Virus record (IMG/VR): IMGVR_UViG_3300013105_000022
Location: 32,001 to 96,000 of that record
Source: a virus
Taxonomy: Duplodnaviria; Caudoviricetes
DNA length: 64,000 bases
Reading direction: 5' to 3' (one strand)
The position numbers and the translations under genes are program-made. The first letter of the stretch is position 1, and each line of letters opens with the position of its first letter. Positions 4,307 to 59,034 of the stretch are shown here, piece by piece. A model generated the notes under the pieces. It did no database searches. It was not told the origin of the DNA and was given only the letters and a program-made list of their open reading frames with translations.

Positions 4307-6849
4307 ATGACAGAGCCAACACCAACCGAGGCAGAGAATGCCGATCCCGCGTTCACCGTAGGCATGATCCGTCTTGCCGCAAGCACCTACAACATCGAGC
4401 CGGTGAAGCATGGCTGAGCCGACCAAGGAGCAGTACGCCTCATTCGGGGAGGCCGTAGCAGGCATCATGGACGGCTACCTCTTCGACACAGCCGACTGGA
4501 CCGAAGAGGACCGCAACAGCACTTTCGTACAGGCCGTAATGCTTGCCGCAAGCGTCTACGGAATCGATCCCAAGGAGCACCCCGATGACTGACATCCCCG
4601 CCAACTTCCCGTCTGCCGCACAGCTTTCCGCGCTGGGCGCATTCACCCTGGGTACTCTCGACGGGTACCTGAAGGACGGAGGCACAGCAGAGGATGTGCT
4701 TGTCAACATGTTCAAGGGTATCGCTCTGACCGGTATCTCCCTGCCCCTGGACGGTGACTGATATGGGCGACGACTTGCAGTATTCGCCGATTGACTACTC
4801 GCCCTTGGAGAAGCGGGTAGAGAGGCGCGACATCTACCCGTGGGGTACGTTCATCATCGACCCCGCAACGGGTCTGCCTCAGCTTGAGGACGGCATGTTC
4901 TTCCGTGTGAAGCGTGTGTTTTTGAGCGGTGGACACTGGAAGGTGAGCTTGCGCAGGCGCGGGGCATTCTGGAGTCACGAGCTTCAATCCCGTACATGGG
5001 GACCGGAGGACGCTATCGATGCGCCCCACATCCTGGATGGTGCCGCATTCGCCCTGACTCACTACTGGGAGGCAGAGGAAGCCCGCAAGGTTGAGAGCAA
5101 CGAGAGCTTGCTGGGTAACTATCCCCCGAAGAGGCTTCCATGAGTGCCCGCGACGACGTACGTACCCTGAGGGACTTCCTGTCTCGCCAGGGGAGCACGG
5201 AGGCCGCATGGAAGGCTCTTGACCGTATCGAAGAGGCTTTGCCTAAGCCCGCCTACGAAACGGGTTACTACCAGCTTTCCGTATCCGGGCTGTACTGGTA
5301 TGAAGGCAGTACAGATGTCTGGTACGACGTGACGCAGGGATACAAGACTACAACCTACCCCAGAACGGTGAACACGGGCGAGCTTGTGCGCCTGTACCGT
5401 GCAGACGAAGTGAGCGCACTGGCATGAGCCTGAGAGAAGACGCACGTACTGTGCGTTACCACATCGAGGACGACCTGAGCACTGAAAGGGCGCGGGAGGC
5501 TCTGAAAGCCTTCGAGCGCATCGAAGCGACCTTGCCTAAGCCCATGACTATGCAGGAGCAGTTCGAGGAGTACCCCATCGGTACCGTCTTCGAGCTTCAC
5601 GACCTGGGAATGCAGTTCGTGAAGGTAGCAGATCGCGCTCTGGTGCGTTCCACCCTCAACGGCAATGGCAAGCTCATCACGGAGTACTACTCCAACCTGT
5701 TCACCGAGAACGTTTACGAGCACTGGAAATGGATGGACACAGTGGGAATGAGGATCGTCAATGAAAAGCCGTGAAGAAGTATTCGCCAAGAGCGCGCAGT
5801 TGTACCCGGACTTCGGTAGCTCGGAGCACCACGGAAGGTCTCTGGGCTTCGAGGAGGGCGCTTTCTGGATCGGTAAGCAGGAGAGCGTACCCACGAGGAA
5901 CGACGTTGTTGCCGAGGCGGAACGCCGCTACGAAATCGAAGAGGGCGACGGGGCATCTGCCATCGTAGCCGTGTGGAGGCGTAGTGGCTTTGTGCTGGGC
6001 GCATCGTGGGCCGTGGACGGGATGCTGGACTGATGACTGTGAGCTTCGACAACGAAGGACTGCCGGTACTCCCTGAGGGGTACTTTTGGCGCATCACTGA
6101 CGTAAGGATGGGATTCTGGGAAGTGCAGTTGCGTAAGCGCATGCTTATCGGATCGCGCACCGTGGAGAGAGCAGTTCACGATAGCTGGGAACCCATCACA
6201 CGCTCCAGTGTCCAGGAGGGCGCTCTGTACGCCTACACCAACTGGGTAGACCCTACCTACTATGATCGGATTGAGGCACAGGTGTTCGGCACCACAGACA
6301 GAAGCCTGATTGGAGACCGATGAGCAGTGACATGAAGGACGCCCGCTGGGGTCTTGCCTTGAGCTTCGCTGAGCGTGAGGGTAAGGAATTCACGGACTAC
6401 AGCTACGCCGAGTTCGAGCGCTTGCTTGACCGGGCGCAGGATGTGCTCAACGATCACCCCGAGTACGTCGCTCACTGGGCAGGCGTATTCAGAACGGTCG
6501 AGCCGTGAGAGCTAAGTACGCACATGCCATTCGCTACGGCATCATGAAAGGTCGCCAGACGCGATACGGTGACGTAGACGATCCCTACTACAAGCTCCGC
6601 TCAGACATCATCTGGGGCTGGAGTGAGTATGACCTTAGAGAGCTTGCCCTGAAGGCCTTCGAGCACACCTGGCAGACAGAGACCGCTACACGCATGCAGG
6701 ACTACTCTGAGGAGGAGCGTGCAGAGGCACAGCGTATCTTTGAGCGCCGGTGGCAGATTCACACCGAGAGTCGTGAGGAGCGTCAGGTGCGTCTCCTCCG
6801 CGAAGAGGTACAAGACCTCAAGGAACGATTGCTGAAGATCGAGCAGTAA
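4307..6849 (+). other. run of about 10 small coupled hypothetical genes (4307, 4410, 4585, 4754, 5140, 5424, 5761, 6033, 6320, 6505)
   Basis: ATGA/GTGA overlaps, consistent codon bias, internal paralogy. Confidence 0.65.
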
Positions 6850-42610: not shown

Positions 42611-44506
42611 ATGTCCAAATTCATGACCATGCATGAGTTCTTCAGCGAGCCTGAAGAAACTCTACAAGAGGGAAGTCTAAGCTCTATCTTTGCCGAGGAG
42701 CCGGTAGACCTTCGTACCTTTATCCGAGACCCCAAATTCCTCGGACAGACGAACGTCGAGCTATCTCCAGAACAGGCGCGTGCCATTCAGGTAATTGAGC
42801 GTGTCTACTACCCAGACCTATATCCGCGCATGGCGGAAGAGTTCGAATTCGGTGAGTACTGGGGTCAGGACATCCCTAGCGCTAACCTCATCACTCTCCA
42901 GTGGGGTAAGGGTTCTGGTAAGGACGCCATTTGCCGTTGGGCCTCGCTCCGTGTGGCATATCTACTTCTCTGCCTCAAGTCTCCGCAGTTGTACTTCGAC
43001 ATGCCTGAGACTGACTCCATTCACCTTCTGAACATTGCCGCTAACGCTCCTCAGGCTAACCGAGCGTTCTTCAAGCCTATGACCACTGCCGTCAAGCAGG
43101 GATGGTTCAAGGGCAAGGCAATCATCCGTCAGGGTGAAATCGAGTACGACAAGAACATCTTCGCCGTGTCTGGTCACTCTGACGCTGAAGGTCAAGAAGG
43201 TCTGAACATCATGCTTGGTGTTGCTGACGAGATTGACGCCTTCAAGGCCAAGGATGAGATGGTCGGAACGGGTAAGAAGCTCCGTGAGGCTTCCACATCC
43301 GCTGAGTCGATTCTAGAAATGCTGAAGACCTCCGCATCTACTCGATTCCCGAAGACCTACAAGCGCGTAGCCATTTCCTACCCTCGCTACCTTGGATCGA
43401 CTATCCAGCAGTTGACCACAGAAGGTCGTGAGTCGAACGAGAAGTACGGCGCGCGCTCTATTCACTACGTCTCCGGACCCCTAGCTACTTGGGATGTCAA
43501 CCCCCGTATCTCTGGTAAGGAAGACTTCTTCGAGGACTATGAGAAGGACCCTGTAGGTTCTGCCGCCAAGTACGAGTGCAAGCCTTCCCGAGCTATCGAC
43601 CCGTTCTTCCGCAACATGGACATCTTCAAGCTGGCCGTGGATAACGATGTCATGCCTCTCACCATCGACTACAAGCCGGTGAACTACTACTCCCCTCACT
43701 ACCACCGCAATGTGCGTGGCTGGGAGCCGATCTTCCACTTCTCTCCTGACTTCAAGCCGATCCAGGGTGCTCGCTACGCACTCCACGGTGACCTTGCTAT
43801 CAAGGGTGACCGTGCCGGTATCGCTATGAGCCACGTCGAGAAGTGGGAACACTTCGACGCCACTCTGGTGGACAATGAGGGAGCGAACTATCAGAAGGAG
43901 ATTGTTCGTCCTCTGATTCGCAATGACTTCACCATCTCGTTCGAGGCTAAGGCTGAGGCACGAGACACCAATGGTGACCCACTTCCCCGCGAAATCCAGA
44001 TTCGATGGGTACGAATGCTGGCTGAAGAACTCCAGAACCGTGGATTCCCTATCAGCCTATTCACTTTCGACAGCTTCCAGTCTGCGGACACTATTCAGAT
44101 TTTCACGTCCCAGGGCGTGGAGTCAAACAAGGTATCTACCGACCGTGATCCATCCCTATGGTCGTCCCTCAAGGACGTAGCATCTGAGGGTCGTCTACGC
44201 ATGCCATTCGATCAGCTACTTATGAATGAGCTTGAGGCACTTTCTAGAATTGACAACGGAAAGGTAGATCATCCGCCGAACGGCTCTAAGGACTTGGCGG
44301 ACGCATTCTGTTGCTCAATCGCTGGTGCCATTGTCGTAGGTGGAGAGGAATCCCCCGATGGCGCGATAGTAGATGTCGGAGGCGCATACTTCATGACGGG
44401 TCCTGCGCTTAGCCCGCTAGAGGGCATGGACGACGTATCGCAGACGTTGGGCGATCCGATGGGTATGCCACTAGGATTCCCGGATAGAGGAACATATGGC
44501 TGGTAA
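42611..44506 (+). CDS. terminase large subunit
   Basis: GKGSGKD Walker A, VADEID Walker B, nuclease HGDLA, FDSFQS, DHP.NGSKDLADA. Confidence 0.9.
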   Translation: MSKFMTMHEFFSEPEETLQEGSLSSIFAEEPVDLRTFIRDPKFLGQTNVELSPEQARAIQVIERVYYPDLYPRMAEEFEFGEYWGQDIPSANLITLQWGKGSGKDAICRWASLRVAYLLLCLKSPQLYFDMPETDSIHLLNIAANAPQANRAFFKPMTTAVKQGWFKGKAIIRQGEIEYDKNIFAVSGHSDAEGQEGLNIMLGVADEIDAFKAKDEMVGTGKKLREASTSAESILEMLKTSASTRFPKTYKRVAISYPRYLGSTIQQLTTEGRESNEKYGARSIHYVSGPLATWDVNPRISGKEDFFEDYEKDPVGSAAKYECKPSRAIDPFFRNMDIFKLAVDNDVMPLTIDYKPVNYYSPHYHRNVRGWEPIFHFSPDFKPIQGARYALHGDLAIKGDRAGIAMSHVEKWEHFDATLVDNEGANYQKEIVRPLIRNDFTISFEAKAEARDTNGDPLPREIQIRWVRMLAEELQNRGFPISLFTFDSFQSADTIQIFTSQGVESNKVSTDRDPSLWSSLKDVASEGRLRMPFDQLLMNELEALSRIDNGKVDHPPNGSKDLADAFCCSIAGAIVVGGEESPDGAIVDVGGAYFMTGPALSPLEGMDDVSQTLGDPMGMPLGFPDRGTYGW

Positions 44507-46394
44507 GGACGACGAAGACAACAAGCTTGAGGCAGGCGAGGTCGCGGCTAACAACCCGAACGCCTTCCCAAAGCCGAAGGACAGTGAGCTTGGCATCGAA
44601 CTCGGTGTGGAGCAAAACCTGCCCTTTGCTGTACCCTTCAGCGACGGCCTTGGAAAGAAGGCACGCCAGGACAAGGAGCTACGAGAGCTTCTTCGTGACG
44701 AGTCCGAAGAGCAGGGTCCTTCTGTATCCCAGCTAATCGCTATGCGCCGTCTGGATGGTCAGGCTCGTGCTCTGTATCGTCTACTCACGCTCCCTCTGCG
44801 TGCCGCTCTCTCCAAGAGCACCTTCATCCCCGCCGATGGGGGAGAAGAAGAAGCAGAGTTCATCGATCACCAGTTCAACCTCCCACCGGCATCCGGTGGT
44901 ATGACTGTGACCTTCCACAGGTTCATGGCTCAGCTTCTCCAGGCTCTGTTCGACGGGTTCTCTCCTTTCGAGATGGTCTACGACTACTCTACGTACGGTC
45001 CTATGAAGGGCAAGTACTACCTGAAGAAGATGGCCTACCGCCAGCCAAACACCATCACCGTTATCGAGGACGAGGATGGCCACTTCGCTGGCTTCCGTCA
45101 GCGCGCCTACGCTAACGGCAAGGCTTACGATGTCGTGATCCCTCGCGAGCGTGCGTTCTACTTCGCCGCTCAAGAGGAAGAGCGCAAGTACTACGGTGTG
45201 AGCTTCTTCCAGAGTGCGTTCTACCACTACGACAAGAAGATCAAGATGTACTACATCGCCCACCTGGCCGCTCAGCGTGCCGCCGTGGGTACTCGTGTGG
45301 GTAAGTTCCCGACCAACATGTCTGAGATTCAGAAGCGCCAGTTCGCTCAGAACCTCTCCAACCTGGCCGTGGCACAGTGGATGCTCGTTCCGATGGACGC
45401 TGAGGTTGAAATCCTCAAGGACAGCGGTTCCTTCGCGTTCCTGGACTACATCAACCACCACAACCACATGATGGCTCAGTCCATCCTTGCGGGCTTCTTC
45501 GACTCTGACACAGGTACAGGCGAGAGTGACAACACTCTCGTCAAGTTCGGCACGCCTGGCGACACCATGTTCTTCCTGATGCTTCAGGCCATCATGGACG
45601 ACATCGCCAACTCGATCAACCACTACATCATCCCGCCGCTCATCGACTGGAACTTCTCGGGTGGAAAGTACCCGACATTCCAGTGGTCTGAGATTACGGC
45701 TGAGCAGAAGTCTCTCATCTACGAGACCTTCAAGACGCTCGCCAACGCCGAGACTGTATCCCCTGAGTTCACCCGTGAACTAGAAATCAAGATGGCCGAT
45801 GACATGGGCCTTGAGATTGACTGGGATGAGGTCGAAGCTCGCGAGGCCATTGAGAAGGAATCCGAGAACATGGTCAACGGTCTCGACGCAGACGGTAAGC
45901 CTCTGCCGAAGGACGCTATGGGCAACCCGATCCTCCCAGGTCAGGACAACCCGGATGCCGCCCTCCAGGCTTTCGAGACTCAGGCCGCTGGCGCTGGTGC
46001 CATTCCAGAGGCTACAGATGAAGAGAAGAAGGCTGTCAAGCTCTCTGCCGACGAGAGCCTACTAGACATGGCTTCTGACCTTCTGAAGCTCGCCCGTCCT
46101 ACCTCCGGCTCGTACCGAACGGTACGTACTCAGGAGGGTGCAGAGCGCTTCGACGTATCCATTGGTCAGCAGATTCCTGCTGGCGCTGGACGAGACGAAG
46201 AGGGCGGCAAGCGCAAGGTAACTGTCGAGCGTCTGATGTCTCTCCGTTCCCAGTTCGATGAGGCTAAGCGCGCCGGTAACCAGGCCGTTGCCGACAAGGC
46301 TATGGAAGCCCTGAAGAAGGCAGTCTACGACTACACAGGTTCCTGGTCTCCTTCCATGTTCATCCAGACGATGAAGAAGCTCCCGACTAAGTAA
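44496..46394 (+). CDS. portal protein with C-terminal extension
   Basis: Follows terminase; GFSPFE, YGVS, INHHN..MAQSIL, IPPLIDWNF (DUF935/Mu gp29-like). Confidence 0.85.
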   Translation: MAGKDDEDNKLEAGEVAANNPNAFPKPKDSELGIELGVEQNLPFAVPFSDGLGKKARQDKELRELLRDESEEQGPSVSQLIAMRRLDGQARALYRLLTLPLRAALSKSTFIPADGGEEEAEFIDHQFNLPPASGGMTVTFHRFMAQLLQALFDGFSPFEMVYDYSTYGPMKGKYYLKKMAYRQPNTITVIEDEDGHFAGFRQRAYANGKAYDVVIPRERAFYFAAQEEERKYYGVSFFQSAFYHYDKKIKMYYIAHLAAQRAAVGTRVGKFPTNMSEIQKRQFAQNLSNLAVAQWMLVPMDAEVEILKDSGSFAFLDYINHHNHMMAQSILAGFFDSDTGTGESDNTLVKFGTPGDTMFFLMLQAIMDDIANSINHYIIPPLIDWNFSGGKYPTFQWSEITAEQKSLIYETFKTLANAETVSPEFTRELEIKMADDMGLEIDWDEVEAREAIEKESENMVNGLDADGKPLPKDAMGNPILPGQDNPDAALQAFETQAAGAGAIPEATDEEKKAVKLSADESLLDMASDLLKLARPTSGSYRTVRTQEGAERFDVSIGQQIPAGAGRDEEGGKRKVTVERLMSLRSQFDEAKRAGNQAVADKAMEALKKAVYDYTGSWSPSMFIQTMKKLPTK

Positions 46395-46402
46395 GGGGCG
46401 CT

Positions 46403-47188
46403 ATGACCTCCTTCAAGGAGCAGATGCGAGTACACGAGGCCTCCAGGGAAGCAACCTCTGCCCTGGAGGCTGTGTCTCGTAGCGCCATCGAGCGTATCTT
46501 CTCCGAGTGGGAGTCAGACATTCATGATGCCCGTAGCGTGCGCTGGGAGCTAGAACGAGTAATTCGTAACGCCTACCGATCCAGCGCTAACGTAGCTCGT
46601 AACGTGGCCTCTGAATCCTCTGGCCTGCCTGACTGGTCATCTGCCGAAGTCTTCAACTCTTCCTACCTCCAGTCGCTGATCCTGGACGTTCGTCGCAACC
46701 TCCGTGACTACAAGAGCGGCAACCTCTCCAGGGAAGGTGCAGTCTCTCGAATCCAGCACTCTGCCGGTGTAGCCGCACAGCGTGGATACACGGATCAGAC
46801 CATCGCTTCCTACACAGAGCTTGAGGACTTCGGCCTGGAGCTACGCAAGTACTGGGTGGCCAACTTCGTCAACAACACCCCGTGCCCTGCATGCACGCGC
46901 CTACACGGCACGGCTGTGGGATTGCATGAGATGTTCCGCACGGAGACAGGCGAGCCTGGAGTCTACCGTGACCTCATTGGTCCTCCCCGCCATCCGAACT
47001 GCAAGTGCCGCCTCTACATCTTCGTGGTCTCGCTGGAGAACGCCTTTGAGTCTCCCAACTTCGAGAAGCCTCAGGAAGCTCCTCAGATGATGAGCACTGA
47101 CGACGTGAAGAAGATGCCGCTGTCTATCTTTGGAGCCGTCAGAGCGAGCCTGAGCGCCATTCTGAGCTTCCTACGAAAGGGACGCTGA
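46403..47188 (+). CDS. MuF-like minor head protein
   Basis: K.W...CPACTRLHG...PPRHPNCKC. Confidence 0.8.
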   Translation: MTSFKEQMRVHEASREATSALEAVSRSAIERIFSEWESDIHDARSVRWELERVIRNAYRSSANVARNVASESSGLPDWSSAEVFNSSYLQSLILDVRRNLRDYKSGNLSREGAVSRIQHSAGVAAQRGYTDQTIASYTELEDFGLELRKYWVANFVNNTPCPACTRLHGTAVGLHEMFRTETGEPGVYRDLIGPPRHPNCKCRLYIFVVSLENAFESPNFEKPQEAPQMMSTDDVKKMPLSIFGAVRASLSAILSFLRKGR

Positions 47189-47409
47189 TGCACTTCCAAT
47201 CCTCCCGTATCATGTTCGACTCCCTGGACGCCGCAGTGGAGGGACTACTGGTTGTGCTCGAAGACGCACGCGAGACAGTCTTCAAGTACAGCTTCGGTTC
47301 CCTATCCGCAGAACAGGTCTACGCCTCTGGTCTCATGCTCATCGGAGAGATTGAGGAAGTCACCCACAAGCTGGAGCAGATCGCGGGCACTACCCGGTAC
47401 GACGACTGA
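47188..47409 (+). CDS. hypothetical protein
   Basis: Coupled ORF. Confidence 0.55.
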   Translation: MHFQSSRIMFDSLDAAVEGLLVVLEDARETVFKYSFGSLSAEQVYASGLMLIGEIEEVTHKLEQIAGTTRYDD

Positions 47410-47507
47410 GCGCGATAGTAACGGTAAATCTTCTTTCCCCGCTAGAGAATTCTTCTTCAATCTTCTGGTATGATGGAGAGGTACGTCCAGAGACTTTAGG
47501 AGTCTGC

Positions 47508-50500
47508 GTGAGCACCGAACTAGAACTTGAGTTCATCGAACTAGCCGTAGGTAAGGGCCGTCGAGTCCAGACCGCTGAAGGTGCTAGGTTCTACGGTCAG
47601 CCTATTGGCACGCTCATCACGCCGGACATGATTAAGAAGGCGCGCTCTGCCGCCAAGGCAAAGGGCATCACCCCGCCCAAGGGTGGCCTCTCTCCGAAGA
47701 AGGCACCCCAGGTATCTGTAGGTGCTGGCAAGGCGTCTCCCGCTGGCAACTTCAATGCTGATCCATCCGCTGGAGCACCTGTAGGCGCTGACACTTCCGG
47801 CAAATTCCAGGTGAAGCCCTCCTCTATCAAGGGTCCTCAAGGATTCAAGGTCGGCGCTACTCAGTACTCCGCTCCTTCCGGCTCTAAGCTCATTCGTCCG
47901 AAGAATCAGGAAGAGTTCGCGTACGTCGTAACTCCGGATGGTTCTGTTCACGCCTTCACCGCCGCCGGTGAGCTAGACGTACCCGACTACCTAGAGCCTG
48001 TCCTTACGAAGAAGTTCAAGGACCTCAAGGGTGATGACACCCTCTACAAGGTAGACACCTTCGATGCCCCGTCCTCCTTGGCTGAGCAGAAGCCAGGCTC
48101 TACGCTGTCCAAGAACGGCAAGCCTCTGTTCAAGAAGCAGGCCAACGGCGTGTGGATGAACGAGGACATCGGTGCTGAGCTTACTGACGATGACCTACAG
48201 CGCCTCTACGATGGTGGTAGCTTCGATCTGGAGCCTGCCAACACTGTCGAGGACATCGACTTCTCAAAGCTGACTACTGACGAGCTTCAGGCCGCTCTTG
48301 AGGCTATGCCTGACGGCAAGCAGATGAAGTTCTCCAAGACTGTCGTAACCAAGAAGAACGGCAAGTGGAACTCCTCCGCCACAGGAAAGAACACTTCCTC
48401 TGAGGACCTGGCATACATGTCAGCAGGTACCGGCTCTATCACAGACAAGCTCGACAACCCTGAGGTAGCCCCAGAGCCTGGTAAGGCTGACAAGGCCGCT
48501 AAGGAGAAGGAAGCTTCTGACCCGCTTCGTAATCCAGAAAATGAGCTAAATGAGACAAATGCTCAGAAGAAGAAGGCGACAGAAGCCAAGGCTACGGGCG
48601 CGGAAATTCTAAAGTCCGAAGTCGGAGCAGTGGTATACCATGACGTTGCCGGTGCCCTCACCAAGCAGGACAATTCCACCTGGGAGAACACTGACGGAGC
48701 CTCCTTCGCAGAAGTAAATATTGTTGACTCTGCCAACATGGGTTACATCTCTAATGAGCCTTGGACTCCAGAGCAGAAGGATGCTAAGGAGAAGTTCGAC
48801 GCCGAGAACACCCTGACGGTTGGGGGCAAGGAGCTATCCACCGTAGGTAAGTTCGGTGAGAACGACCGCTCCGAGGCCATCAAGGCAGATGGCGGATCGA
48901 CACCGAACGTCTTCGAGCTAGAAGCTACTCCAGAGAACGTTAAGACGTTCCGTGACGCCATGCAGAAGTCGCTTGAGGGAAACCCTTACTCTGCATCCGT
49001 GTACGTCTACGACGAGTCCGACTACGCGGGTATGCGCCTCTTCCTGTCCGACGATGGAAAGAGCGGTATCGCCCTGCACGACGGAGACGAGATTGTCTCC
49101 GTCTTCAGCGACCCCAAGAGCAAGAACAAGAAGGTAGCTCGCCACCTAATCTCCGTAGCTGTGGAGAACGGTGGAAAGCGCCTAGACGCCTTCGACACAG
49201 TGCTACCGGGAATCTACGCTAAGGAGGGCTTCATTGTCAAGTCTCGCCTGAAGTGGGATGACGACTTCGCCCCGGAGAACTGGAACAAGGAAACCTTCAA
49301 GAAGTTCAACAACGGCGAGCCGGATGTTGTCTTCATGCAGTACGAGAAGGGCATGGAAGACCTCGACTACGAGCCGGGTTCCGGAGACTACGTAGATGAC
49401 TACGACAAGGGCCTAGCATCCACCGGCGGTAAGGCACAGGACGAGAACGACTATCGTCCTGAGATTGGCGACCCTGATAACGAAGAGAACAGCGTAGAGA
49501 CCACCAAGAGCGGCTACGTTGTCAACGATGAGGTCAAGTCTTCCCTAGCTGAGGGTAAGAAGATCAACGCCATCCTCAACCTGAAGAACTCCAACAAGGG
49601 GATGTCTCTGGCTGAGGCCAAGAAGGAAATCGACGCGATGGTTCTCGAAGGGTACCAGCCCGGAGACACCGTAAGTGGAAACATGCTCTGGGAGCTTCCA
49701 GAGGGTGCCAAGATCAAGACCGCTTCAGGTGGAGAGTTCACCAAGAACGAGAATGGCAACTGGGTCACCAAGAACGGTGGTGTCTTCTCTTCGAGCGATA
49801 TGTACGATGACGGTATGGATGCTGAGATTGTAAGCAACCCTGCCGCCAAGCAGAAGAAGATCGAAGCACCGAAGGTTGAAGAGCCTGAGGTTGATCCTGA
49901 TGAGGAGTTCCACAGCCTTCTCGAAGCGAATGAAGTCACAGTCGAGAAGCTGATTGACCTCAAGGCCGGAGACATCATCTCCAACGGTGAGTTTGAGTTC
50001 ACCAAGGATGAGAACGACAAGTTCGTCAACGACCAGTTCCTATACGAGTTCGACGCTGACGACTTCTCCCAGGACATCGACAATGGCAAGATTTCCATTG
50101 TCGAGCAGACCGGCTCTGACGATGAAGAAGCCGTAGATGCAGACACCGCAACTGTAGACGACCTCAAGGCTATGAAGCCGGGTGACTCCGTGAACATCGC
50201 GGATTTCAAGTACGTCATGAATGATGATGGGAAGCTGGTTTCGGACACGAGCGGGTGGCTGTTTGACCCGCAGGAATTCGAGCAGGACCTAAAGACGTGG
50301 GGTTCTAAGAAGAGTGACATCACTCCGTCTCAGACTGTCGAAAAGTACGGCGAGAACGGCAACGAGTTCCTTCCAGAGGCTCAGGCTAAGCAGGCCATCG
50401 AGTCCCTGGAAGCACACTCTGGTTTCCAGATCAAGTACGGACTGAAGTCTCTGCCTGAGGATCACCCGCTCAAGAACCAGGAGTACCTTGACGGGTACCT

Positions 50501-53500
50501 CGCTGACGCCAAGCAGAACTTCTCCGACCTTTCCCCTAAGGCCGCTCTGCTCGCTCAACTGAAGCTGGATGCCAAGGTAGAGAAGCTGGACGAATGGGAG
50601 AAGGAGCTTCTTGCAGAGGGAAGCACTGACAAGATTCAGATCGGCTCTCGTACCCCGAAGACAAACGCTACCGGTGTAACCGGAGGACAGTTCAACAAGG
50701 GCGACGTTCAGAGTGCCATCGACATCCTGGAGAACTACAACGGCAAGCTGTTCAAGAGCGAACTGAACAAGAAGGGCAACCCTCTCGGTAAGCTGTCCCC
50801 GAACGACATCGTAGGCTTCGATAAGGACAAGACCCTTACCAAGCAGAAGTTCATTGATCTTCTGAAGAAGAAGGTTGCTCCGAAGGAAGCTCCTGTAGAA
50901 GAGGCTATGAACAAGCAGTTCGACATCTCTCAGGAGCCTGAAGAGGGTAAGGTTGTCGCCGCTGATCCGGACATGAGCGCTCTCAAGAATGCCCCGGTGG
51001 GTACCATTGTGAGCAGGCCCACTCCTCCTTACATGGGTACGCCTAACGGTCTTCAGAAGTACCAGAAGAACGAGGACGGCACTTGGTCTAACATTGAGGG
51101 AACTACTCCACCAAAGCAGTCTGATAGCGTCTTCTTCTACAACACAGCCATGAGTGGTGGGCTGAAGTGGAGCGCTCCGGATGTTCCAGAGAGGGAAGAC
51201 AACGGCCAGTACGCTGACGGTGACCTGATCCAGTCATTCGAGAACTTCAAGAATCTGCCGGTCGGTTCTGAAGTTAGCTTCCAGTCTAAGTACGGTGGAG
51301 ACCCCTCTACCTATGTAAAGACGCGCCCCGACACCTGGGTAGTATCCGATGACCCAGACCTCAAGCTGAAGGATCAGAACTTCAAGAACTCCGTCGAGGG
51401 TGGATCACTCAGCTACAAGAAGACAGAGCCTACCGCTCCTGATGCCGACGACTCCCTGGATGCTACGCTCGACGCGCACTTCCAGATCATGGCCGAGCTT
51501 GACAAGGCTGTTTCCGTTCTGCCCGCTGAAGAGCGCGGCGAGAACGGTGATGGCTATGTCATCGTGCACACGGAGAAGGGTCCAAAGATCACGTGGGGTA
51601 AGTTCGGTGGTGGAGGTATCGCTACCGTAGCCACGGACGAGAACGGTGTGAAGAAGGTCCTCATCGGTAAGCGTGGAGACCGCGATGAGTGGTACCTGCC
51701 GGGTGGAGCTATCGATGAGAACGAGAGCCACCTTCAGGGTTCGCTCCGTGAGTTCACCGAAGAAGTAGAAGATGGTGACGCCATTCTGGACAGCATCCAG
51801 ATCACGCAGGCGTACCAGGCTGTCATCGGAAAGATCGAAGGAACGGACAAGGACTGGAAGTACGTCACGTCTGTTGCTACACTGCCTTCCATGATCGATG
51901 TCAAAGCACCGGATAGCATCGAGGATTGGGAACTCAAGGAGTACCAGTGGTTTAGTGCTGAAGAGCTTAATGTGCTCGATGCTGAGGGTAAGCTTCACCC
52001 TGCCCTGGGAGGAGGAAACCTTGCCAAGATGGTAGGTTTCTACGACACGGAAGTTGACGACCTCCACGCAGACATCCTCTCCCTCATGAACGAGCCGGAC
52101 AACCTCAACGAGGATCGATACGACATCTCCAACTGGAAGAAGGTCGATGGAGGTCAGGGCGGATCGAACCCTGGCGGCGTGTACGAAGACCCTCTGGGCA
52201 ACAAGTACTACGTCAAGGAGTCCAACGGCGGCGAAGCACCGATGCATAACGAGGTCATCGGTGGCGCACTCTACAAGGCCGCTGGTGTCAACAGCAACGA
52301 AGTCTTCTTCGTTACTAAGGGCGATCAGCGTCTTCTGGCGACCCCGTGGATCGAGAACAACGGGCAGAAGATGCTTGACGTTCTCGACGGCAACGAAAAT
52401 GAGTTCAGGAAGAAGGCCCAGGCTGACTTCGCTATCGATGCCTGGCTGGACAACTACGATGTCGTCGGTATCGGCCCGTGGAACCTTGTGGCTGACGAGA
52501 ACGGTGATCCTCTACGACTTGATCCAGGCGGCTCGATGATGTTCCGTGCTACTGGAGCAGAAAAGTCGTGGTGGAGCGACGAGCCTACCGCTATCGATGA
52601 CATGCGCTTCGGTTCCAGCAACTCCAGTGCCTACACTTACCTCCCGAATGTCTTCGGTGATATGACGGGCGATCAAGTGAAGGAATCTGCGAAGAAGCTC
52701 CTCGCGGTGACCCCCGAGAAGATCAGCACTATCGTCAACTCTTCCGGGCTTGACGAGGATACTAAGGCCAAGCTGTACTCGACTCTGGTGATCCGCCGTG
52801 AGAAGATTCTGGACCGCTTCGGTCTGACTCCTGAGGGAACGACGATTGACGTGCCCGAAGCCGTTTCTGGTACCCCTGCATTCACTAAGGGTACGACAGT
52901 CAAGCTGAAGGGTACCGGTCAGCAGTTCCAGGTTGAGCTTTCTAACAATGAGGCTACAGCCGGTCTCGTAGACGGCAAGTTCCTGGTCTTCCTGAACGAC
53001 GAGCTTACGGGCGATCTGGAAGCTAACTTTAGTGCTCAGCACGCCTTCACATCGAACGGTGAGAACTTCAAGCAGGCTGAGGCCGTTGAGGTCATCGACC
53101 CGAAGAACCCCGGACAGAAGATTCCAGGATTCGTCATGAAGGCCGACTGGTCAAGTGGTCTCGTACAGGTCATGACAGGCGCTGAGGGTGGAGAAACAAC
53201 CAGCATCGAGGTAGACAAGTCTCACATCACGAAGATGCCTCAGCAGGCTCCACAGCGCGTCGAGCTTCCAGAGGGCTACGCTAAGGTACCTGAGGGCCAG
53301 AAGGCATTCGGCAAGTACCCGAACCTGGGTTACTACGTCACCGTGGACGAGAGCGACGAGACTCACGTCTATGGAATCGATGGCAGTTCTTGGGCAGGAG
53401 GACCTAAGGCCGCTTACGAGCAGGCATTCAAGAACCCTGAAAGCTCCTGGGAAGCTTGGAGCGGAGATGGTTCCGCTCCAGAGCCGCAGGCTACCCCAGA

Positions 53501-55376
53501 GGTCGAGACTCCTGCCGATGGCCCGAAGGACAGCGCGGGTCAGGTGGTCGCTATGGGCGACAACGTGACTATCGTCAAGTACAACAAGGGCGGACTCTCC
53601 AACAAGGCCACCATCGTCTCGATCAACTCCGAGAAGGGAACCGCAAAGGTTCGCCGTCTGGATGAGAACGGTGTGCCTATGGTGGGCGAGAACGGCAAGC
53701 CTCTGTACGCTACGATGTCGCTGTCCAGCCTCCGCAAGGACAACCAGACCGTGAACGAGAGTGGTCTGCCTACAGGCATCACCATGTCTGGTGGAGACAA
53801 GAACAGCCCTCTGTATGGACAGCCTGAGCCTGTCGCACCGGCGGCTACTCCACAGACCGAATCTGATGCCCCAATCGTCTCTGACGAGTGGATCAGCAAG
53901 GCCACAGAGGCTTACAAGGCCTACCGCTCCAAGAAGGGCCTCCCTGAGAAGGACCTGAAGCTGTCTACCACGGCTTGGGGTCCTATCGAGAGAGCCATGA
54001 AGGGTGACGAGTCTGCGCTGACCGCTATCAAGACCAAGGGTTACCTGGACGAAGACCCGGCCCTGTATGAAGAAATTCAGCAGGCCATCGACGCACAGAA
54101 GCTCAAGTACGCTGACATCATCGCTCAGCACGAGCAGGCTGTAACCGAATACCAGAAGCAGAAGTCCGAATGGATGACTGCCAATGGTGTTGCCTCCTAC
54201 ACGCCGATCAAGCACGAGCAGACTCTTCAGATGAACGAGAACGAGTCCAAGGACTGGGCACTCAAGAAGTACACCAACATCTTGAGCAAGCTGACCTCGA
54301 AGGCTAAGCAGGGTCTCCAGAGTCAGAAGGTCTCGTCGGACTGGCAGACGGTCATTCGCAAGCTTCCAGCCATCCTGGGTCTTCGTCGTGAGGACGTAGC
54401 TAGCGCGCCTGGAGTGCATGAAGCGAACATGCAGACGTGGGACAACATCAAGGAAGCCACAGACCAAGCAGGGCCTGTAGGAGAGGCCTTCCGCGCCGTA
54501 CGTACCATCTCATTCGACCGACTGGTTGGCCCGGACGGTAACCCTCTGACCTCTGATAGTGACCTGACCAAGATCATCGGTTCCATTCAGAAGGATCACG
54601 GAGCTATGGAGATTGTTCCAGGTTCCGTCGATCACGGTGGTAAGATCGCTGACTTCTACCCTGTCATCATGGACCTCGCGGTTCCTGCCGACGCCAAGGG
54701 AATGTACACGGGCTTCGAAGAGTTCTCTTACAACGAAGAGCACGGAATCATCATGGAGCCTGGACTGGCCATGTACATCTGGGGTGCCGAGCAGAAGAAG
54801 ATTCCTCAGTTGGGTGGACTTACGAAGTGGGTCGTCAAGGCCTCTATCATCCCGCGCGATGTTCTGCCGTACATGAACAACTTCCAGGGTGATCCGATGA
54901 GTCACAACATCCTGATCCCTGGTAAGGACACCACGACCGGTATCACTTCATCTCCGTTCTCGGAAGAGAACTGGGGAAAGAGCACTCTCGCGGAGATTAA
55001 GAAGGCCAAGATCGATGACGCCGTTGTGGACTTCGATGGCAAGCAGTGGAAGAAGATCAACGACATCTCAACGGGAACGAAGATTTGGTGGCAGAACGGT
55101 ACAGGTAAGAAGGCCTCTGACCAGTTCCTCTTCGACAACTTCATGGGCGAGAAGCCCGCTCCGGAAGTCTTCGAGACCGTACAGCCTAAGGGATACAGGT
55201 GGACTGAATCCAAGCTGGACAATCTGAGCATCGGAGATAACGTCGTAGACAGTGACGGAGATATCTGGCAAAAGATTTCTGGCGGTGAATGGAAGCTGAT
55301 CCAGAAGAATGGCCCTAGCAACTACCTCGAAGTGGGCGAAGTTCGCTCCAGCTATGCCGTCGCATCCTACATGTAA
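47508..55376 (+). CDS. giant multi-domain (polyvalent) putative internal virion protein: GNAT-like, L7/L12-like, Nudix, PI-kinase/HipA-like, VIP2-like ART, repeats
   Basis: 2622 aa inside head operon; exact Nudix box GAIDENESHLQGSLREFTEE; YVK..NEV..DAWLDNYD..N..DPG kinase-like motifs; LDAFDTVLPGIY GNAT-like segment. Confidence 0.75.
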   Translation: MSTELELEFIELAVGKGRRVQTAEGARFYGQPIGTLITPDMIKKARSAAKAKGITPPKGGLSPKKAPQVSVGAGKASPAGNFNADPSAGAPVGADTSGKFQVKPSSIKGPQGFKVGATQYSAPSGSKLIRPKNQEEFAYVVTPDGSVHAFTAAGELDVPDYLEPVLTKKFKDLKGDDTLYKVDTFDAPSSLAEQKPGSTLSKNGKPLFKKQANGVWMNEDIGAELTDDDLQRLYDGGSFDLEPANTVEDIDFSKLTTDELQAALEAMPDGKQMKFSKTVVTKKNGKWNSSATGKNTSSEDLAYMSAGTGSITDKLDNPEVAPEPGKADKAAKEKEASDPLRNPENELNETNAQKKKATEAKATGAEILKSEVGAVVYHDVAGALTKQDNSTWENTDGASFAEVNIVDSANMGYISNEPWTPEQKDAKEKFDAENTLTVGGKELSTVGKFGENDRSEAIKADGGSTPNVFELEATPENVKTFRDAMQKSLEGNPYSASVYVYDESDYAGMRLFLSDDGKSGIALHDGDEIVSVFSDPKSKNKKVARHLISVAVENGGKRLDAFDTVLPGIYAKEGFIVKSRLKWDDDFAPENWNKETFKKFNNGEPDVVFMQYEKGMEDLDYEPGSGDYVDDYDKGLASTGGKAQDENDYRPEIGDPDNEENSVETTKSGYVVNDEVKSSLAEGKKINAILNLKNSNKGMSLAEAKKEIDAMVLEGYQPGDTVSGNMLWELPEGAKIKTASGGEFTKNENGNWVTKNGGVFSSSDMYDDGMDAEIVSNPAAKQKKIEAPKVEEPEVDPDEEFHSLLEANEVTVEKLIDLKAGDIISNGEFEFTKDENDKFVNDQFLYEFDADDFSQDIDNGKISIVEQTGSDDEEAVDADTATVDDLKAMKPGDSVNIADFKYVMNDDGKLVSDTSGWLFDPQEFEQDLKTWGSKKSDITPSQTVEKYGENGNEFLPEAQAKQAIESLEAHSGFQIKYGLKSLPEDHPLKNQEYLDGYLADAKQNFSDLSPKAALLAQLKLDAKVEKLDEWEKELLAEGSTDKIQIGSRTPKTNATGVTGGQFNKGDVQSAIDILENYNGKLFKSELNKKGNPLGKLSPNDIVGFDKDKTLTKQKFIDLLKKKVAPKEAPVEEAMNKQFDISQEPEEGKVVAADPDMSALKNAPVGTIVSRPTPPYMGTPNGLQKYQKNEDGTWSNIEGTTPPKQSDSVFFYNTAMSGGLKWSAPDVPEREDNGQYADGDLIQSFENFKNLPVGSEVSFQSKYGGDPSTYVKTRPDTWVVSDDPDLKLKDQNFKNSVEGGSLSYKKTEPTAPDADDSLDATLDAHFQIMAELDKAVSVLPAEERGENGDGYVIVHTEKGPKITWGKFGGGGIATVATDENGVKKVLIGKRGDRDEWYLPGGAIDENESHLQGSLREFTEEVEDGDAILDSIQITQAYQAVIGKIEGTDKDWKYVTSVATLPSMIDVKAPDSIEDWELKEYQWFSAEELNVLDAEGKLHPALGGGNLAKMVGFYDTEVDDLHADILSLMNEPDNLNEDRYDISNWKKVDGGQGGSNPGGVYEDPLGNKYYVKESNGGEAPMHNEVIGGALYKAAGVNSNEVFFVTKGDQRLLATPWIENNGQKMLDVLDGNENEFRKKAQADFAIDAWLDNYDVVGIGPWNLVADENGDPLRLDPGGSMMFRATGAEKSWWSDEPTAIDDMRFGSSNSSAYTYLPNVFGDMTGDQVKESAKKLLAVTPEKISTIVNSSGLDEDTKAKLYSTLVIRREKILDRFGLTPEGTTIDVPEAVSGTPAFTKGTTVKLKGTGQQFQVELSNNEATAGLVDGKFLVFLNDELTGDLEANFSAQHAFTSNGENFKQAEAVEVIDPKNPGQKIPGFVMKADWSSGLVQVMTGAEGGETTSIEVDKSHITKMPQQAPQRVELPEGYAKVPEGQKAFGKYPNLGYYVTVDESDETHVYGIDGSSWAGGPKAAYEQAFKNPESSWEAWSGDGSAPEPQATPEVETPADGPKDSAGQVVAMGDNVTIVKYNKGGLSNKATIVSINSEKGTAKVRRLDENGVPMVGENGKPLYATMSLSSLRKDNQTVNESGLPTGITMSGGDKNSPLYGQPEPVAPAATPQTESDAPIVSDEWISKATEAYKAYRSKKGLPEKDLKLSTTAWGPIERAMKGDESALTAIKTKGYLDEDPALYEEIQQAIDAQKLKYADIIAQHEQAVTEYQKQKSEWMTANGVASYTPIKHEQTLQMNENESKDWALKKYTNILSKLTSKAKQGLQSQKVSSDWQTVIRKLPAILGLRREDVASAPGVHEANMQTWDNIKEATDQAGPVGEAFRAVRTISFDRLVGPDGNPLTSDSDLTKIIGSIQKDHGAMEIVPGSVDHGGKIADFYPVIMDLAVPADAKGMYTGFEEFSYNEEHGIIMEPGLAMYIWGAEQKKIPQLGGLTKWVVKASIIPRDVLPYMNNFQGDPMSHNILIPGKDTTTGITSSPFSEENWGKSTLAEIKKAKIDDAVVDFDGKQWKKINDISTGTKIWWQNGTGKKASDQFLFDNFMGEKPAPEVFETVQPKGYRWTESKLDNLSIGDNVVDSDGDIWQKISGGEWKLIQKNGPSNYLEVGEVRSSYAVASYM

Positions 55377-55816: not shown

Positions 55817-56129
55817 GAAGCTTGAGGGCGACATCACACAGGTTGAGGGGTACTACCTCGCCGTAGCTCGTGGTGCCGATTCGGGTGAGTTCATCGGCTT
55901 CTATGGCTTCACTCCTGACGGAACCTACATCCGCAACGCGGGTAACTGGATCACCGCCACAGGCCCTGCCCTGAACAAGCTCAACGGTGCTCAATTGGTC
56001 GAGATGAAGAACACATTCATCCTCCGCTTTGACGCATTGGACAAGAAGGGACTCCTCCCTCCCGGAGATGATGTCCTGGAAGAGAAGAGCACAAAGGGCA
56101 ATCCAGGCTCCTGGGATTCACAGAACTGA
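55797..56129 (+). CDS. hypothetical protein
   Basis: Overlapping coupled ORF. Confidence 0.6.
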   Translation: MTMTLNKKLEGDITQVEGYYLAVARGADSGEFIGFYGFTPDGTYIRNAGNWITATGPALNKLNGAQLVEMKNTFILRFDALDKKGLLPPGDDVLEEKSTKGNPGSWDSQN

Positions 56130-56175: not shown

Positions 56176-57288
56176 ATGGACGACGATCTTGTTTATGTAC
56201 CCGACGAAGGCAACTCCTTCGTTGAGCTTTCGCGCACCCCTTCGGGTAAGCTGTACCGCAAGCACATCCTTACCAAGGGTCCTCTTTACTACCCTGGCGT
56301 AAAGGGCGGAAAGATTGACGTAGACGACAAGTTCCTTGATACGGTTGTCAAGAACTTCAACGATCACGTCGTATCTCACGTACAGGCACCGGTGGTCGAT
56401 GGAAACAATTCCCACACCGAAGACCCGTTCCGTAACATTGGTGAAGTTATCAAGGTTGAGCGTGAGGGTGATAAGCTATACTCGTACATTGACGTACGTG
56501 ACGAAAAGGCTGTCCCTCTTGTAGGTAAGACTCTTCTTGGTGCTTCTGCTATGTTCTCCCTCGACTGGAAGAACAACAAGACCAACATGCGTGTTGGACC
56601 GGCCCTGATTCACACGGCCATTACCAACAACGCTCATGTCAACGACCTCGAAGATTTTGAGGAAGTGCGACTCTCCAATGGAGTGAGCGATAGTAATACA
56701 CGACAGAAGGCAGTGGTACTTTCCGCTAGCCCAGACGACAACACTAAGGATGGTTCCGCAATGGACCTAGACGAACTGATTGCAGTCCTTAAGGACGAGC
56801 ACGGTATCGACGTTCCTGAGCTTCAGAAGGCGGCTGGCAAGGCTGACAAGTTCGCCAAGCTTTCTGCTGAGCTTCAGGAGAAGCTTGCTACGGGCGAGGA
56901 TGCAGTCCTCAAGCTGAGCAACACCGATGACGAGGCTTCTGCCGAGGACATCGTTGCCGCAGTTGCTGACCTCGTACAGTCCCGCGTAGAGCTTTCCTCC
57001 AAGGTCGATGGCCTTGTCAAGGATGCCGCTACCGCTAAGGCTGAGGCTCGCATCGAAGAGCTTGTTGCCGGTGGCTTCATCGCCCCTGCCAAGCGCGCCG
57101 AGAACCTGGAGCTTCTGCTCTCCAACGCCGAGCTATTCGAGCGTATGGTTCCTGAGAAGCCGCTCGTCAAGCTCTCTGCTGAGGACGGCCAGGAGCACAA
57201 GGATGACTCGCACGACGAGACTGTCGCAAGTGAGGTCGCCCGTCTTTCCGCCGATGCCAAGGCCAACGGCCTTCTCATCGAGGCCTAA
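56176..57288 (+). CDS. capsid maturation protease / scaffold fusion
   Basis: Leaderless ATG 56176; H, SAMF, GPALIHTAITN (Mu gpI-like); coiled-coil C-half. Confidence 0.8.
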   Translation: MDDDLVYVPDEGNSFVELSRTPSGKLYRKHILTKGPLYYPGVKGGKIDVDDKFLDTVVKNFNDHVVSHVQAPVVDGNNSHTEDPFRNIGEVIKVEREGDKLYSYIDVRDEKAVPLVGKTLLGASAMFSLDWKNNKTNMRVGPALIHTAITNNAHVNDLEDFEEVRLSNGVSDSNTRQKAVVLSASPDDNTKDGSAMDLDELIAVLKDEHGIDVPELQKAAGKADKFAKLSAELQEKLATGEDAVLKLSNTDDEASAEDIVAAVADLVQSRVELSSKVDGLVKDAATAKAEARIEELVAGGFIAPAKRAENLELLLSNAELFERMVPEKPLVKLSAEDGQEHKDDSHDETVASEVARLSADAKANGLLIEA

Positions 57289-57318: not shown

Positions 57319-57729
57319 ATGGTAGAATACGCAGGTAACGCGATTCCAGCCGCTGGCATTACGCGCGGTCAGAACGTACCCGACGACGAGATTCTGTACT
57401 CGACTGTCGGATTCACACAGAAGGGTGTCACTCTAGCCGCTGGCCAGGGTACGCTCCTTGCAGGTACCGCCCTTGCACGTAAGACTTCCACGAAGGAATA
57501 CGTCAAGTTCGCTTCCGGTGGTGGAGATGGTACGGGCACTCCGCTCGGTATCCTCCGCAAGACGGTTGCAACCGGTTCCGACGCAAACGGTCAGAAGTAC
57601 ATGGGTAACATCGTTATCGCTGGTATCCTCAAGCTTCAGAAGGTTTCTTCGGCTAACGGCGGTGTCTCGAACATCACGACTCCTCTTGGAGCAGTCGCTA
57701 ACGACGTACTCCAGACGTTCAAGTTTTAA
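57319..57729 (+). CDS. head decoration protein
   Basis: VTLAAGQGTLLAGTAL...GIL; position before capsid gene. Confidence 0.7.
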   Translation: MVEYAGNAIPAAGITRGQNVPDDEILYSTVGFTQKGVTLAAGQGTLLAGTALARKTSTKEYVKFASGGGDGTGTPLGILRKTVATGSDANGQKYMGNIVIAGILKLQKVSSANGGVSNITTPLGAVANDVLQTFKF

Positions 57730-58005: not shown

Positions 58006-59034
58006 GTGCCTGATATTTCACTCTTCCAGCCAACGGTGCTGATGGGTGTCGTTGAGAAGTTCACGGCACCTGAGAATCTTACAATGCTCAACCGCATTGA
58101 CAAGACTCCGCACCCGTTCCCGACTGCACAGTGGGACGTTATCCGTGGTTCGCGCGCTATTGCTCGCCCGAACGTTCCGAACTCTGAAGCCCACATCGTA
58201 CCTCGCCTCGGTCGCGAGCAGATGGCCGCTAGCTTCATCTACCTTCGTGAGAAGAAGGTATTCGAGCCGACGACTCTGTACTGGCTACGTACCCCTGGTG
58301 AAATCGCCAAGGTAAACGCCGAGCGTGCAGTTCTCCGTGAAATCACGGACCTGAACCGTCGTTTCGACAACTTCGCTGAGTACGCCATTTGGCAGATGTT
58401 CACGGGTCAGTTCAACCTTCCCGAGGACGGCGATGCTCCTGCTATCAACGTTGACTACAAGCTCCCAGCTTCGCACAAGGTCAACGCCGGTACTTCTTGG
58501 GCAACCGCTACTCCGAAGCAGATCATCGCTGATGTTCGCGCTTGGAAGCGTCTCGTCAACCGTGACGGTCAGGTAGTTGCTAACGAGGCTTACGCTTCCG
58601 AGAACTCCATCACCGCCATCTTCGACTCCTTCGCTTCGGCTGGTACCACTCCCGCGTACCTCCTGTCCGACCGCATGAAGGACCAGTACTACCGTGAGGG
58701 TCTGCTTCCAGGCTTCCTCGGTATCAACTGGAAGATTCAGGATGCCGTCTTCGACGCCACGGGTGCCTCGTACACCGAGAACCCGACCGATCCTGGTGCA
58801 GAGAAGCCGTTCCTGGCCGACAACCGCATCATCTTCGGTAACTTCACCGAGGGTCGTCCGTTCGAGATGATCGTTGGACCGACCGCTGACCTTGAGGCTC
58901 CTCAGGGCTACACGGGCAAGTTCGCCAAGACCTGGCAGGACAAGGACCCGTCCGGTCGTCAGTACCTCCTAGAGTGGAACTTCCTGCCGGTTCTGAACCG
59001 TCCTGAGCAGTTCGTTTACGCCAACGTCGCGTAA
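58006..59034 (+). CDS. major capsid protein (lambda E-like)
   Basis: AGGAG RBS, strongest codon bias, EYAIWQMFTG, VDY, DPSG...LPV, downstream terminator. Confidence 0.85.
   Translation: MPDISLFQPTVLMGVVEKFTAPENLTMLNRIDKTPHPFPTAQWDVIRGSRAIARPNVPNSEAHIVPRLGREQMAASFIYLREKKVFEPTTLYWLRTPGEIAKVNAERAVLREITDLNRRFDNFAEYAIWQMFTGQFNLPEDGDAPAINVDYKLPASHKVNAGTSWATATPKQIIADVRAWKRLVNRDGQVVANEAYASENSITAIFDSFASAGTTPAYLLSDRMKDQYYREGLLPGFLGINWKIQDAVFDATGASYTENPTDPGAEKPFLADNRIIFGNFTEGRPFEMIVGPTADLEAPQGYTGKFAKTWQDKDPSGRQYLLEWNFLPVLNRPEQFVYANVA

Follow-up and report, generated by a model that had tools for sequence, protein, structure and literature searches.

A short sequence tag behind candidate maturation-protease sites, probably retained on proteins carried in the phage head

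We describe a sequence element of about 20–25 amino acids, with the consensus RxVRTxEGAxxYGxPIGxxI, that is found twice in a 64,000-nucleotide stretch (hereafter the window; positions 32,001 to 96,000) of the 136.5-kb tailed-phage record IMGVR_UViG_3300013105_000022, in a head module of the Mu/lambda type. One copy lies in the C-terminal tail of the portal protein and the other near the N-terminus of a 2622-residue multi-enzyme protein. We propose that the element is a retained N-terminal tag of head-internal cargo, situated downstream of a maturation cleavage and marking proteins that are carried in the phage head, and we put the probability of this reading at roughly 0.6. The tag is widespread and modular, its position behind an element resembling a protease site is strict, and it is apparently undescribed so far; no description of it was found in the literature searched, in Pfam or in NCBIfam.

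Both copies are encoded on the plus strand. In the portal (632 residues; 44496..46394) the tag occupies R541–I560 (46116..46175) and is preceded by V-K-L-S (residues 514–517; 46035..46046), the first candidate Φ-x-L-[S/A] protease site of the tail, and by a predicted helix (residues 519–533; 46050..46094) ending in L-K-L-A (530–533), a candidate cleavage site directly before the tagged module. In the giant protein (47508..55376) it occupies R18–I37 (47559..47618), behind a 13-residue leader (47508..47546) whose end, I-E-L-A (residues 10–13), is likewise a candidate cleavage site. Seven residues (RPTSGSY) separate LKLA from the motif in the portal, and four (VGKG) separate IELA from it in the giant protein. 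The peptides that a sequence-only reading of this DNA had quoted at 46035–46178 and 47508–47621 are identical to the translations, and its claim that the two proteins share one motif beside candidate protease sites agrees with an independent profile, with a small protein of phage Magritte and with relatives of the giant protein.

By itself, the portal/giant pair is not significant. The ungapped 20-residue match comprises nine identities plus an F/Y pair, about 18 bits, and a BLASTP comparison of the two proteins did not list it while returning some 20 chance pairs that were just as good (17–19 bits, E about 3–10). A profile made from 127 motif copies, with the window's clade left out, was run against the window translated in all six frames and found only the giant-protein N-terminus (E = 3e-12, 41.9 bits) and the portal tail (E = 1.1e-4), the next match being at E = 0.26. 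This shows the two copies to be homologous, the one in the giant protein being near-consensus and the one in the portal diverged. Relatives of the giant protein (P0319, P0350, P0352, P0357, P0336 and P0325) retain Φ-E-L-A directly before the motif, with the junctions KIELA/VRRVQT, TIELA/RKVRT and FLELA/RGVRRVRT (here and below the slash marks the candidate cut).

The portal copy had been taken for an odd C-terminal extension, but it turns out to be the fused counterpart of a free-standing gene. In Microbacterium phage Magritte the portal stops about where LKLA falls in the window, and the next gene encodes gp14, a protein of 108 residues with the motif at its very N-terminus (M-V-E-R-K-V-R-T-P-E-G-A-R-M-F-G-V-P-I-G). 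Over a stretch of 89 residues, gp14 and the tail of the window's portal are 40% identical (E = 1e-14). Judging from this homology, the window protein is thus a portal to which a gp14-like protein has been fused, and the extension is a whole small tagged protein consisting of the motif and a three-helix domain (residues 577–628; 46224..46379, plus strand). This domain is predicted with a local confidence score (pLDDT) of about 95 and aligns with the free-standing 108-residue proteins. An AlphaFold model of the tail predicts the motif as a strand, a short helix and a second strand, followed by disordered linkers and then the confident three-helix domain, and a model of the whole portal predicts a helix at residues 519–532 and gives the motif (pLDDT about 78) strand or bridge positions flanking a helix at 546–552. 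Foldseek searches with the tail model against the PDB and BFVD returned nothing below E = 0.1, and thus no related fold.

The same tail, with site helix, spacer and motif, is present in 41 of the 120 closest portal relatives and absent from the other 79; the tail-bearing portals are 611–673 residues long, plus one of 1027. Their conserved layout runs from V-[K/A]-L-S through an acidic helix (LL-x-MA-x-[DE]-LL-x-L-A) and a short spacer to R-x-V-R-T-x-E-G-A. In more distant portals a Φ-E-L-[AS] site abuts the motif (VELS/RRVAT, LELAS/RKVQT), and in P0089 a Zeta-toxin/AAA_33 kinase module follows downstream of portal, site and motif, which shows the portal C-terminus to be a place for the attachment of tagged modules. 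The motif is thus conserved in the 41 tail-bearing portals as well as in relatives of the giant protein, as the sequence-only reading required of a genuine signal. The 1027-residue member, P0158, a tail-bearing Portal_Mu relative, contains HNH_3 and intein-splicing Pfam domains and is therefore apparently a portal interrupted by an intein. The portal of locus L010 has 483 residues and no tail, and L010 has no gp14-like gene.

The tag extends well beyond this clade. When residues 1–200 of the giant protein served as a tblastn query, the motif turned up N-terminally in three large proteins of head operons, Magritte gp17, Brevibacterium phage Cantare gp11 and Gordonia phage DalanDe gp27, and as an internal copy in Gordonia phage Gray gp27. 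One motif profile (A1) matched 120 proteins in a collection of 5.8 billion; another (A3), built only from the window and metagenome loci, matched 1019 cluster representatives among 1.84 billion proteins at E ≤ 1e-3 and 114 at E ≤ 1e-10, with up to seven copies per protein. Across 227 retrieved proteins with 381 copies, the first copy begins within 40 residues of the start in 135 and within 5 residues of the initiator Met in 30, and copies in multi-copy proteins have a median spacing of 292 residues. Tags sit either N-terminally or in two to seven copies between the enzyme domains of head-operon polyproteins, where they flank GNAT, topoisomerase IB, 2H/LigT ligase, PI3/4-kinase, VIP2-type ADP-ribosyltransferase, Zeta toxin, peptidoglycan-binding and glutamine deamidase domains; other carriers are prohead proteases (DalanDe gp27, P0023), portals, and proteins in which the tag lies downstream of MuF (P0053, P0246). 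The idea of a modular element beside candidate protease sites is supported, the same element heading many unrelated cargo modules in head operons.

At loci with enough flanking sequence the tagged protein is encoded in the head module, most commonly in the order terminase, portal (or portal-MuF), small gene or genes, tagged protein, protease and capsid protein. DalanDe departs from this order, and L010 has an additional tag in a gene upstream of the terminase; this gene (L010:3957-5369) encodes a 470-residue DUF6582 protein with an internal tag (about nt 4908–5015) after ADVQL/T. Searches of Pfam and NCBIfam at E up to 10 with six short tag-bearing pieces found no family covering the motif, and the ESM Atlas gave no usable match. 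Among the multi-copy proteins, P0245 (2312 residues, six tags) and P0246 (2537 residues, seven tags) are extreme 'beads-on-a-string' cases: a Φ-E-x-K-like word stands 1–4 residues upstream of 12 of their 13 tags, and P0246 has an N-terminal MuF domain and P0245 a C-terminal Zeta toxin domain. In some proteins and phages the canonical form is accompanied by a second flavour, RRVRDxEYWGxPYGTxITPGMKP, namely in Gray gp26 and gp27 (L004:6536-6655, L004:7615-7734) and in P0014, P0021 and P0035; one example stands at the N-terminal end of a VIP2-like ADP-ribosyltransferase. A phage with both flavours might have two receptors for them, or two classes of cargo.

The element that precedes the tag behaves like a prohead-protease site. 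It lies 0–4 residues upstream, and its type goes with the family of protease that the genome encodes, Φ-E-x-K being found with S78 proteases and Φ-x-L-[A/S] with Mu-I-like proteases. Six Mu-like_Pro genomes (the window, Magritte, L009, L010, L011 and L012) have sites of the latter type and five Peptidase_S78 genomes (Cantare, DalanDe, L006, L008 and L013) have K-type sites, the genomes in each set being phylogenetically non-independent. The density of Φ-E-x-K rises sharply in one place only, at −5 to −1 counted from the first R of the motif, with 0.40 per copy against a background of 0.03, and no enrichment downstream of the tag; a K falls within four residues upstream of 73% of copies, compared with 23% in the background.

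The sites before the tags also correspond to those in capsid or scaffold proteins of the same genome, as seen in L006, Cantare, DalanDe and the window's clade. In L006 the word [IL]AFK occurs four times in 7548 residues, twice directly before tags, once in a 149-residue protein that is the next one after the tagged polyprotein, and once in the capsid protein (residues 95–98), at the end of its N-terminal region just before SLGQQF. Cantare has IEEK/AIRKVRT in its cargo and GMEAK/SLG in its capsid protein, and DalanDe has LESK/, IETK/ and LETK/ in cargo and DMESK/ in the capsid protein. The window's protease/scaffold protein contains nine Φ-x-L-[SA] words where 2.5 are expected (p = 0.001), among which the Φ-x-L-S tetrapeptide of the portal tail (V-K-L-S) recurs; its pairs L273-S274 and L333-S334 are invariant among four homologs, and most other sites are L-S or L-T in three or four of them. 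A K-type site (VEAK/SLDGG, residues 481–485) also lies between the portal and MuF parts of the Cantare portal-MuF fusion (L002:3960-6341), so the fused MuF may be freed by the prohead protease. In the C-terminal part of the S78 protease of L008 (L008:4702-6210) a degenerate tag-like stretch, below the profile threshold, follows a K site (VEYK/MVRRGSRIHGWPIGITG); this hints that the targeting peptide of the S78 protease itself may be related to the tag.

That a tagged protein reaches the virion is shown by published work on Gordonia phage GMA2. Dyson et al. (2015; PMC4524720) detected three proteins by mass spectrometry of purified virions, and these include orf10 (S5 Table of PMC4524720), which is the 883-residue P0126 of our motif-profile matches. 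All 18 published peptides of orf10 map to residues 142–845, and the most N-terminal of them, K-YGVPIGSPINAAK, is the second half of the tag; hence the tagged protein is in the virions and its tag is retained. Residues 1–131 yielded no peptide, despite at least five suitable tryptic peptides there, at an overall coverage of 29%. The part preceding AAGPK/RVRT has probably been removed, although the support for this is weak (roughly p = 0.03). RefSeq labels P0126 a head maturation protease, and no protease domain was found in it; residues 741–841 give a weak Pfam match to Acb1-like proteins (anti-CBASS 2H phosphoesterases; E = 8e-4, below the cut-off).

We propose the following mechanism. The tag, with its predicted strand–short helix–strand fold, would stand at the N-terminal end of proteins that travel in the head; in the window phage these would be the small protein fused to the portal (tag plus three-helix domain), which is a separate gene in relatives, and the 2622-residue multi-enzyme protein, which carries the tag after its 13-residue leader. 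During head maturation the Mu-I-like prohead protease would cut after Φ-x-L-[A/S], that is at LKLA in the portal and at IELA in the giant protein. The first cut would free about 12 copies of a tagged peptide of some 10 kDa from the portal ring, corresponding to the free gp14 of relatives, and the second would trim the giant protein to a form whose N-terminus lies a few residues ahead of the tag. Elsewhere the tag follows the K-type sites of S78 proteases and divides long polyproteins into enzyme modules, each with a tag at its head. The retained tag could then dock on a conserved head component, for which portal, MuF and scaffold are candidates, and docking would keep the cargo in the head and/or pass it to the portal channel at ejection. 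Docking of this kind, for retention or for hand-over at ejection, seems to us the likeliest function of the tag. MuF is the most attractive of these partners; the five phage records have it, as do the window, L006, L010 and L011, and the MuF-like protein of the window (46403..47188) is a candidate partner.

Several points weigh against the proposal of a retained cargo tag. Φ-x-L-[SA] is a weak pattern, which in the window occurs at background frequency in the portal, the giant protein and the other head proteins, and cleavage at LKLA and IELA is suggested by conservation only. A cleavage of the Mu portal by gpI found no support in the literature searched and is not counted as evidence. The capsid K/SLG junctions are reminiscent of the HK97 site K103/S104, but the part that could be aligned with HK97 structures begins some 65 residues beyond them, and for this reason we rely on the covariation within genomes instead. 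Removal of the GMA2 N-terminal part is deduced from absent peptides, at the coverage and p value given above. In about a quarter of the proteins the first copy lies past residue 120. The portal copy reads F-D-V-S-I-G in place of Y-G-x-P-I-G, and its function may have been lost or changed. Finally, no binding partner of the tag was identified, and in L012, a 13-kb contig, a motif scan (not a profile search) revealed neither a MuF gene between portal and giant protein nor a MuF hallmark word. MuF can thus not be upheld as a universal receptor and is kept as one candidate only.

Other explanations of the motif must be weighed against that proposal. The motif might bind nucleic acid and so tether internal proteins to the packaged DNA, docking on no head protein. 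Such a role would suit its basic character (RxVRT) and the basic helix or lysine/arginine-rich linker that follows many copies, and DNA binding has been reported for SPP1 gp7, a member of the MuF family. We nevertheless regard it as unlikely. Internal proteins enter the procapsid ahead of the DNA, so DNA binding cannot explain how they are loaded; the downstream basic stretch is not conserved, being absent from the portal tail and from many other copies; and a PDB sequence search with the motif profile gave only noise, with no match to a solved DNA-binding structure (best E = 0.73).

A narrower role within proteolysis, in which the motif would be only the P'-side recognition element of an extended prohead-protease substrate and would have no address function, strikes us as very unlikely, even though most copies begin 0–4 residues after a site-like element and all kinds of substrates carry the motif, the protease itself included. 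The same motif follows two types of site that belong to two unrelated protease families, S78 and Mu-I-like. It also stands directly at the Met in the 30 proteins noted above and in the free-standing gp14-like proteins, where there is nothing to cleave. Met-start copies and the two protease families together indicate that the tag is more than a recognition element for the protease, and capsid and scaffold proteins, for their part, have the same sites without the motif.

We find it highly improbable that the tag acts in the infected cell after ejection, for example by directing delivered enzymes to one host target or compartment. The very different effector enzymes that it precedes are indeed all expected to act in the host, but portal tails, prohead proteases and the small helical protein encoded beside the portal, for which no action in the host is expected, are tagged as well. 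Its presence on portal tails and proteases thus favours a function in the head over one in the host, as does the strict coupling to maturation-protease sites. That the portal and the giant protein resemble each other by chance, as the roughly 18 bits of their pairwise match and the equally good BLASTP pairs might suggest, is refuted to near certainty by the independent profile with its only two sites in the window, by the homology of the tail to Magritte gp14 and by the conservation of the motif in the 41 portals and in relatives of the giant protein.

The tag probably belongs with the packaging or handling signals of head-internal proteins that are coupled to maturation proteolysis. The closest functional comparison is the capsid targeting sequence (CTS) of phage T4, a propeptide that precedes the protease site and is lost as the head matures (PMC9026906). 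Like the CTS of IPI–III and Alt, the tag is a short, modular, N-terminal element that is coupled to a prohead-protease site and found on unrelated head-packaged proteins, and T4 likewise delivers enzymes with its DNA, such as the Alt ADP-ribosyltransferase (PMC9026906). Sharing among otherwise unrelated head-internal proteins of one phage is seen in the window, with two unrelated carriers, in DalanDe, with three, and in Gray, with two proteins of which one has two copies. The CTS, however, comprises about 10 residues, is situated upstream of the cut and is removed, whereas the tag comprises about 20–25, lies downstream of the candidate cut and is retained in GMA2; the two have no sequence similarity, and the tag, unlike the CTS, has internal copies in polyproteins and is carried by portal, MuF and protease proteins. 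The sequence-only reading had invoked a T4-style cleaved leader as a model for two head-internal polypeptides with a common N-terminal address. The shared address finds support in the GMA2 virion protein whose most N-terminal peptide is from the tag, but the analogy to T4 falls short in that the conserved element is downstream of the site, as the density peak at −5 to −1 indicates, and is retained.

The cargo itself resembles the polyvalent proteins of Iyer et al. (2017; PMC5512222), which are large multi-domain effectors whose genes lie in head modules and for which packaging and injection are predicted; NUDIX, GNAT, ADP-ribosyltransferase, Zeta toxin and 2H domains are common to both. Resemblance extends to the MuF-VIP2 fusions of Microbacterium phages (PMC7302621), since MuF or portal fusions are also seen in the tagged P0053, P0246 and P0089. 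In both papers packaging is ascribed to covalent fusion with MuF or portal and processing to the proteins' own peptidase domains (PMC5512222, PMC7302621), whereas most tagged cargo is not fused to MuF. A term search of PMC5512222 and the available part of PMC7302621 gave no mention of the tag or of its pairing with a prohead-protease site. The giant protein and its relatives combine several unrelated enzyme domains in the head module near portal and MuF, the relatives having GNAT, topoisomerase IB, ADP-ribosyltransferase, Zeta toxin, 2H and kinase domains. Covalent fusion is not what the window has: its MuF is a separate gene of 261 codons, and Pfam and PHROG searches found neither a MuF nor a portal domain in the giant protein.

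Encapsulin cargo-loading peptides are likewise short and portable and load unrelated enzymes into a shell of the HK97 fold; most of them are C-terminal, and what they bind is a pocket on the inner face of the shell protein. Their G-S-L-type core superficially resembles P-I-G-[ST]-[VI]-I, the second half of the tag. The tag differs in being N-terminal to its module, and the capsid proteins of tagged phages fall into two Pfam families, which argues weakly against a shell receptor. In HK97 the protease targeting signal is C-terminal and binds the delta domain. This tail is a peptide on a head-internal enzyme, which it brings into the prohead, and S78 proteases of some tagged phages carry the tag; the tag differs by its place N-terminal to the module and by its occurrence in Phage_cap_E phages with a separate Mu-I-like protease/scaffold gene. 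In phiKZ-like phages and SPN3US the maturation cleavages remove propeptides, and we know of no conserved element that is retained at their new N-termini. These giant phages resemble the tagged ones in that their prohead protease processes numerous head-internal proteins at a short consensus before ejection into the host (PMC7411985, PMC5694885). They differ in protease family and host phylum.

The head module in which the two tagged genes lie begins with a terminase gene (42611–44506). The portal contains Portal_Mu (PF06074) at residues 83–427 (E = 5.8e-35), spanning the portal core, and has 533 relatives at E ≤ 1e-20. It is followed by the gene for the MuF-like head morphogenesis protein (plus strand), with PHROG head morphogenesis matches and a PF04233 score of 27.7 bits, slightly below the cut-off, and by a 73-codon open reading frame (ORF; 47188–47409) with no family match. 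An ORF of 69–77 codons, also without a family match, lies between the MuF and giant genes in five of the six clade genomes examined, L012 lacking it (L001:6788-7015, L009:9736-9969, L010:9731-9940 and L011:2198-2419 are the counterparts of the window's ORF); its product might serve the giant protein as a chaperone or adaptor. The giant gene, between those for MuF and the protease, encodes a NUDIX domain (PF00293, residues 1374–1490) and a PHROG 2563 region; its syntenic counterparts are the giant genes of Magritte, L009, L010, L011 and L012. A 142-codon ORF separates it from the gene for the Mu-I-like prohead protease/scaffold (about 370 residues; 56176..57288, plus strand; PF10123, E = 8.6e-4), a family also called in the relatives L009–L012. 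The longest protease ORF, which overlaps the ORF before it, has its start codon (TTG) at 56029, but the alignment with four homologs begins at the Met at 56176 (MDDDLVYV...), the likely true start. Genes for a lambda-D-like decoration protein (57319–57729) and a Phage_cap_E capsid protein (58006–59034) follow. A megablast of the region against phage records gave no match.

The named hosts of tagged phages so far are Gordonia, Brevibacterium and Microbacterium, and many metagenomic relatives carry the tag too. The tag provides a searchable sequence handle that yields about a thousand candidate packaged proteins, divides giant ORFs into predicted mature products and makes predictions about the cleavage specificity of two families of prohead protease. 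It also bears on a question that is open for polyvalent proteins, namely how effectors that are not fused to MuF or portal enter and leave heads. Going beyond the cargo tag as such, we suggest tentatively, at somewhat less than even odds, that it serves universally as a portable peptide for docking on a conserved component at the portal vertex, by which large siphoviruses could load any protein and release it with the DNA, their protease cutting beads-on-a-string polyproteins into tagged effectors. If so, it would add a third way of packaging cargo, a non-covalent one, to the removable CTS of T4 and covalent fusion to MuF, and the docking peptide would be directly usable for loading reporters into phage heads.

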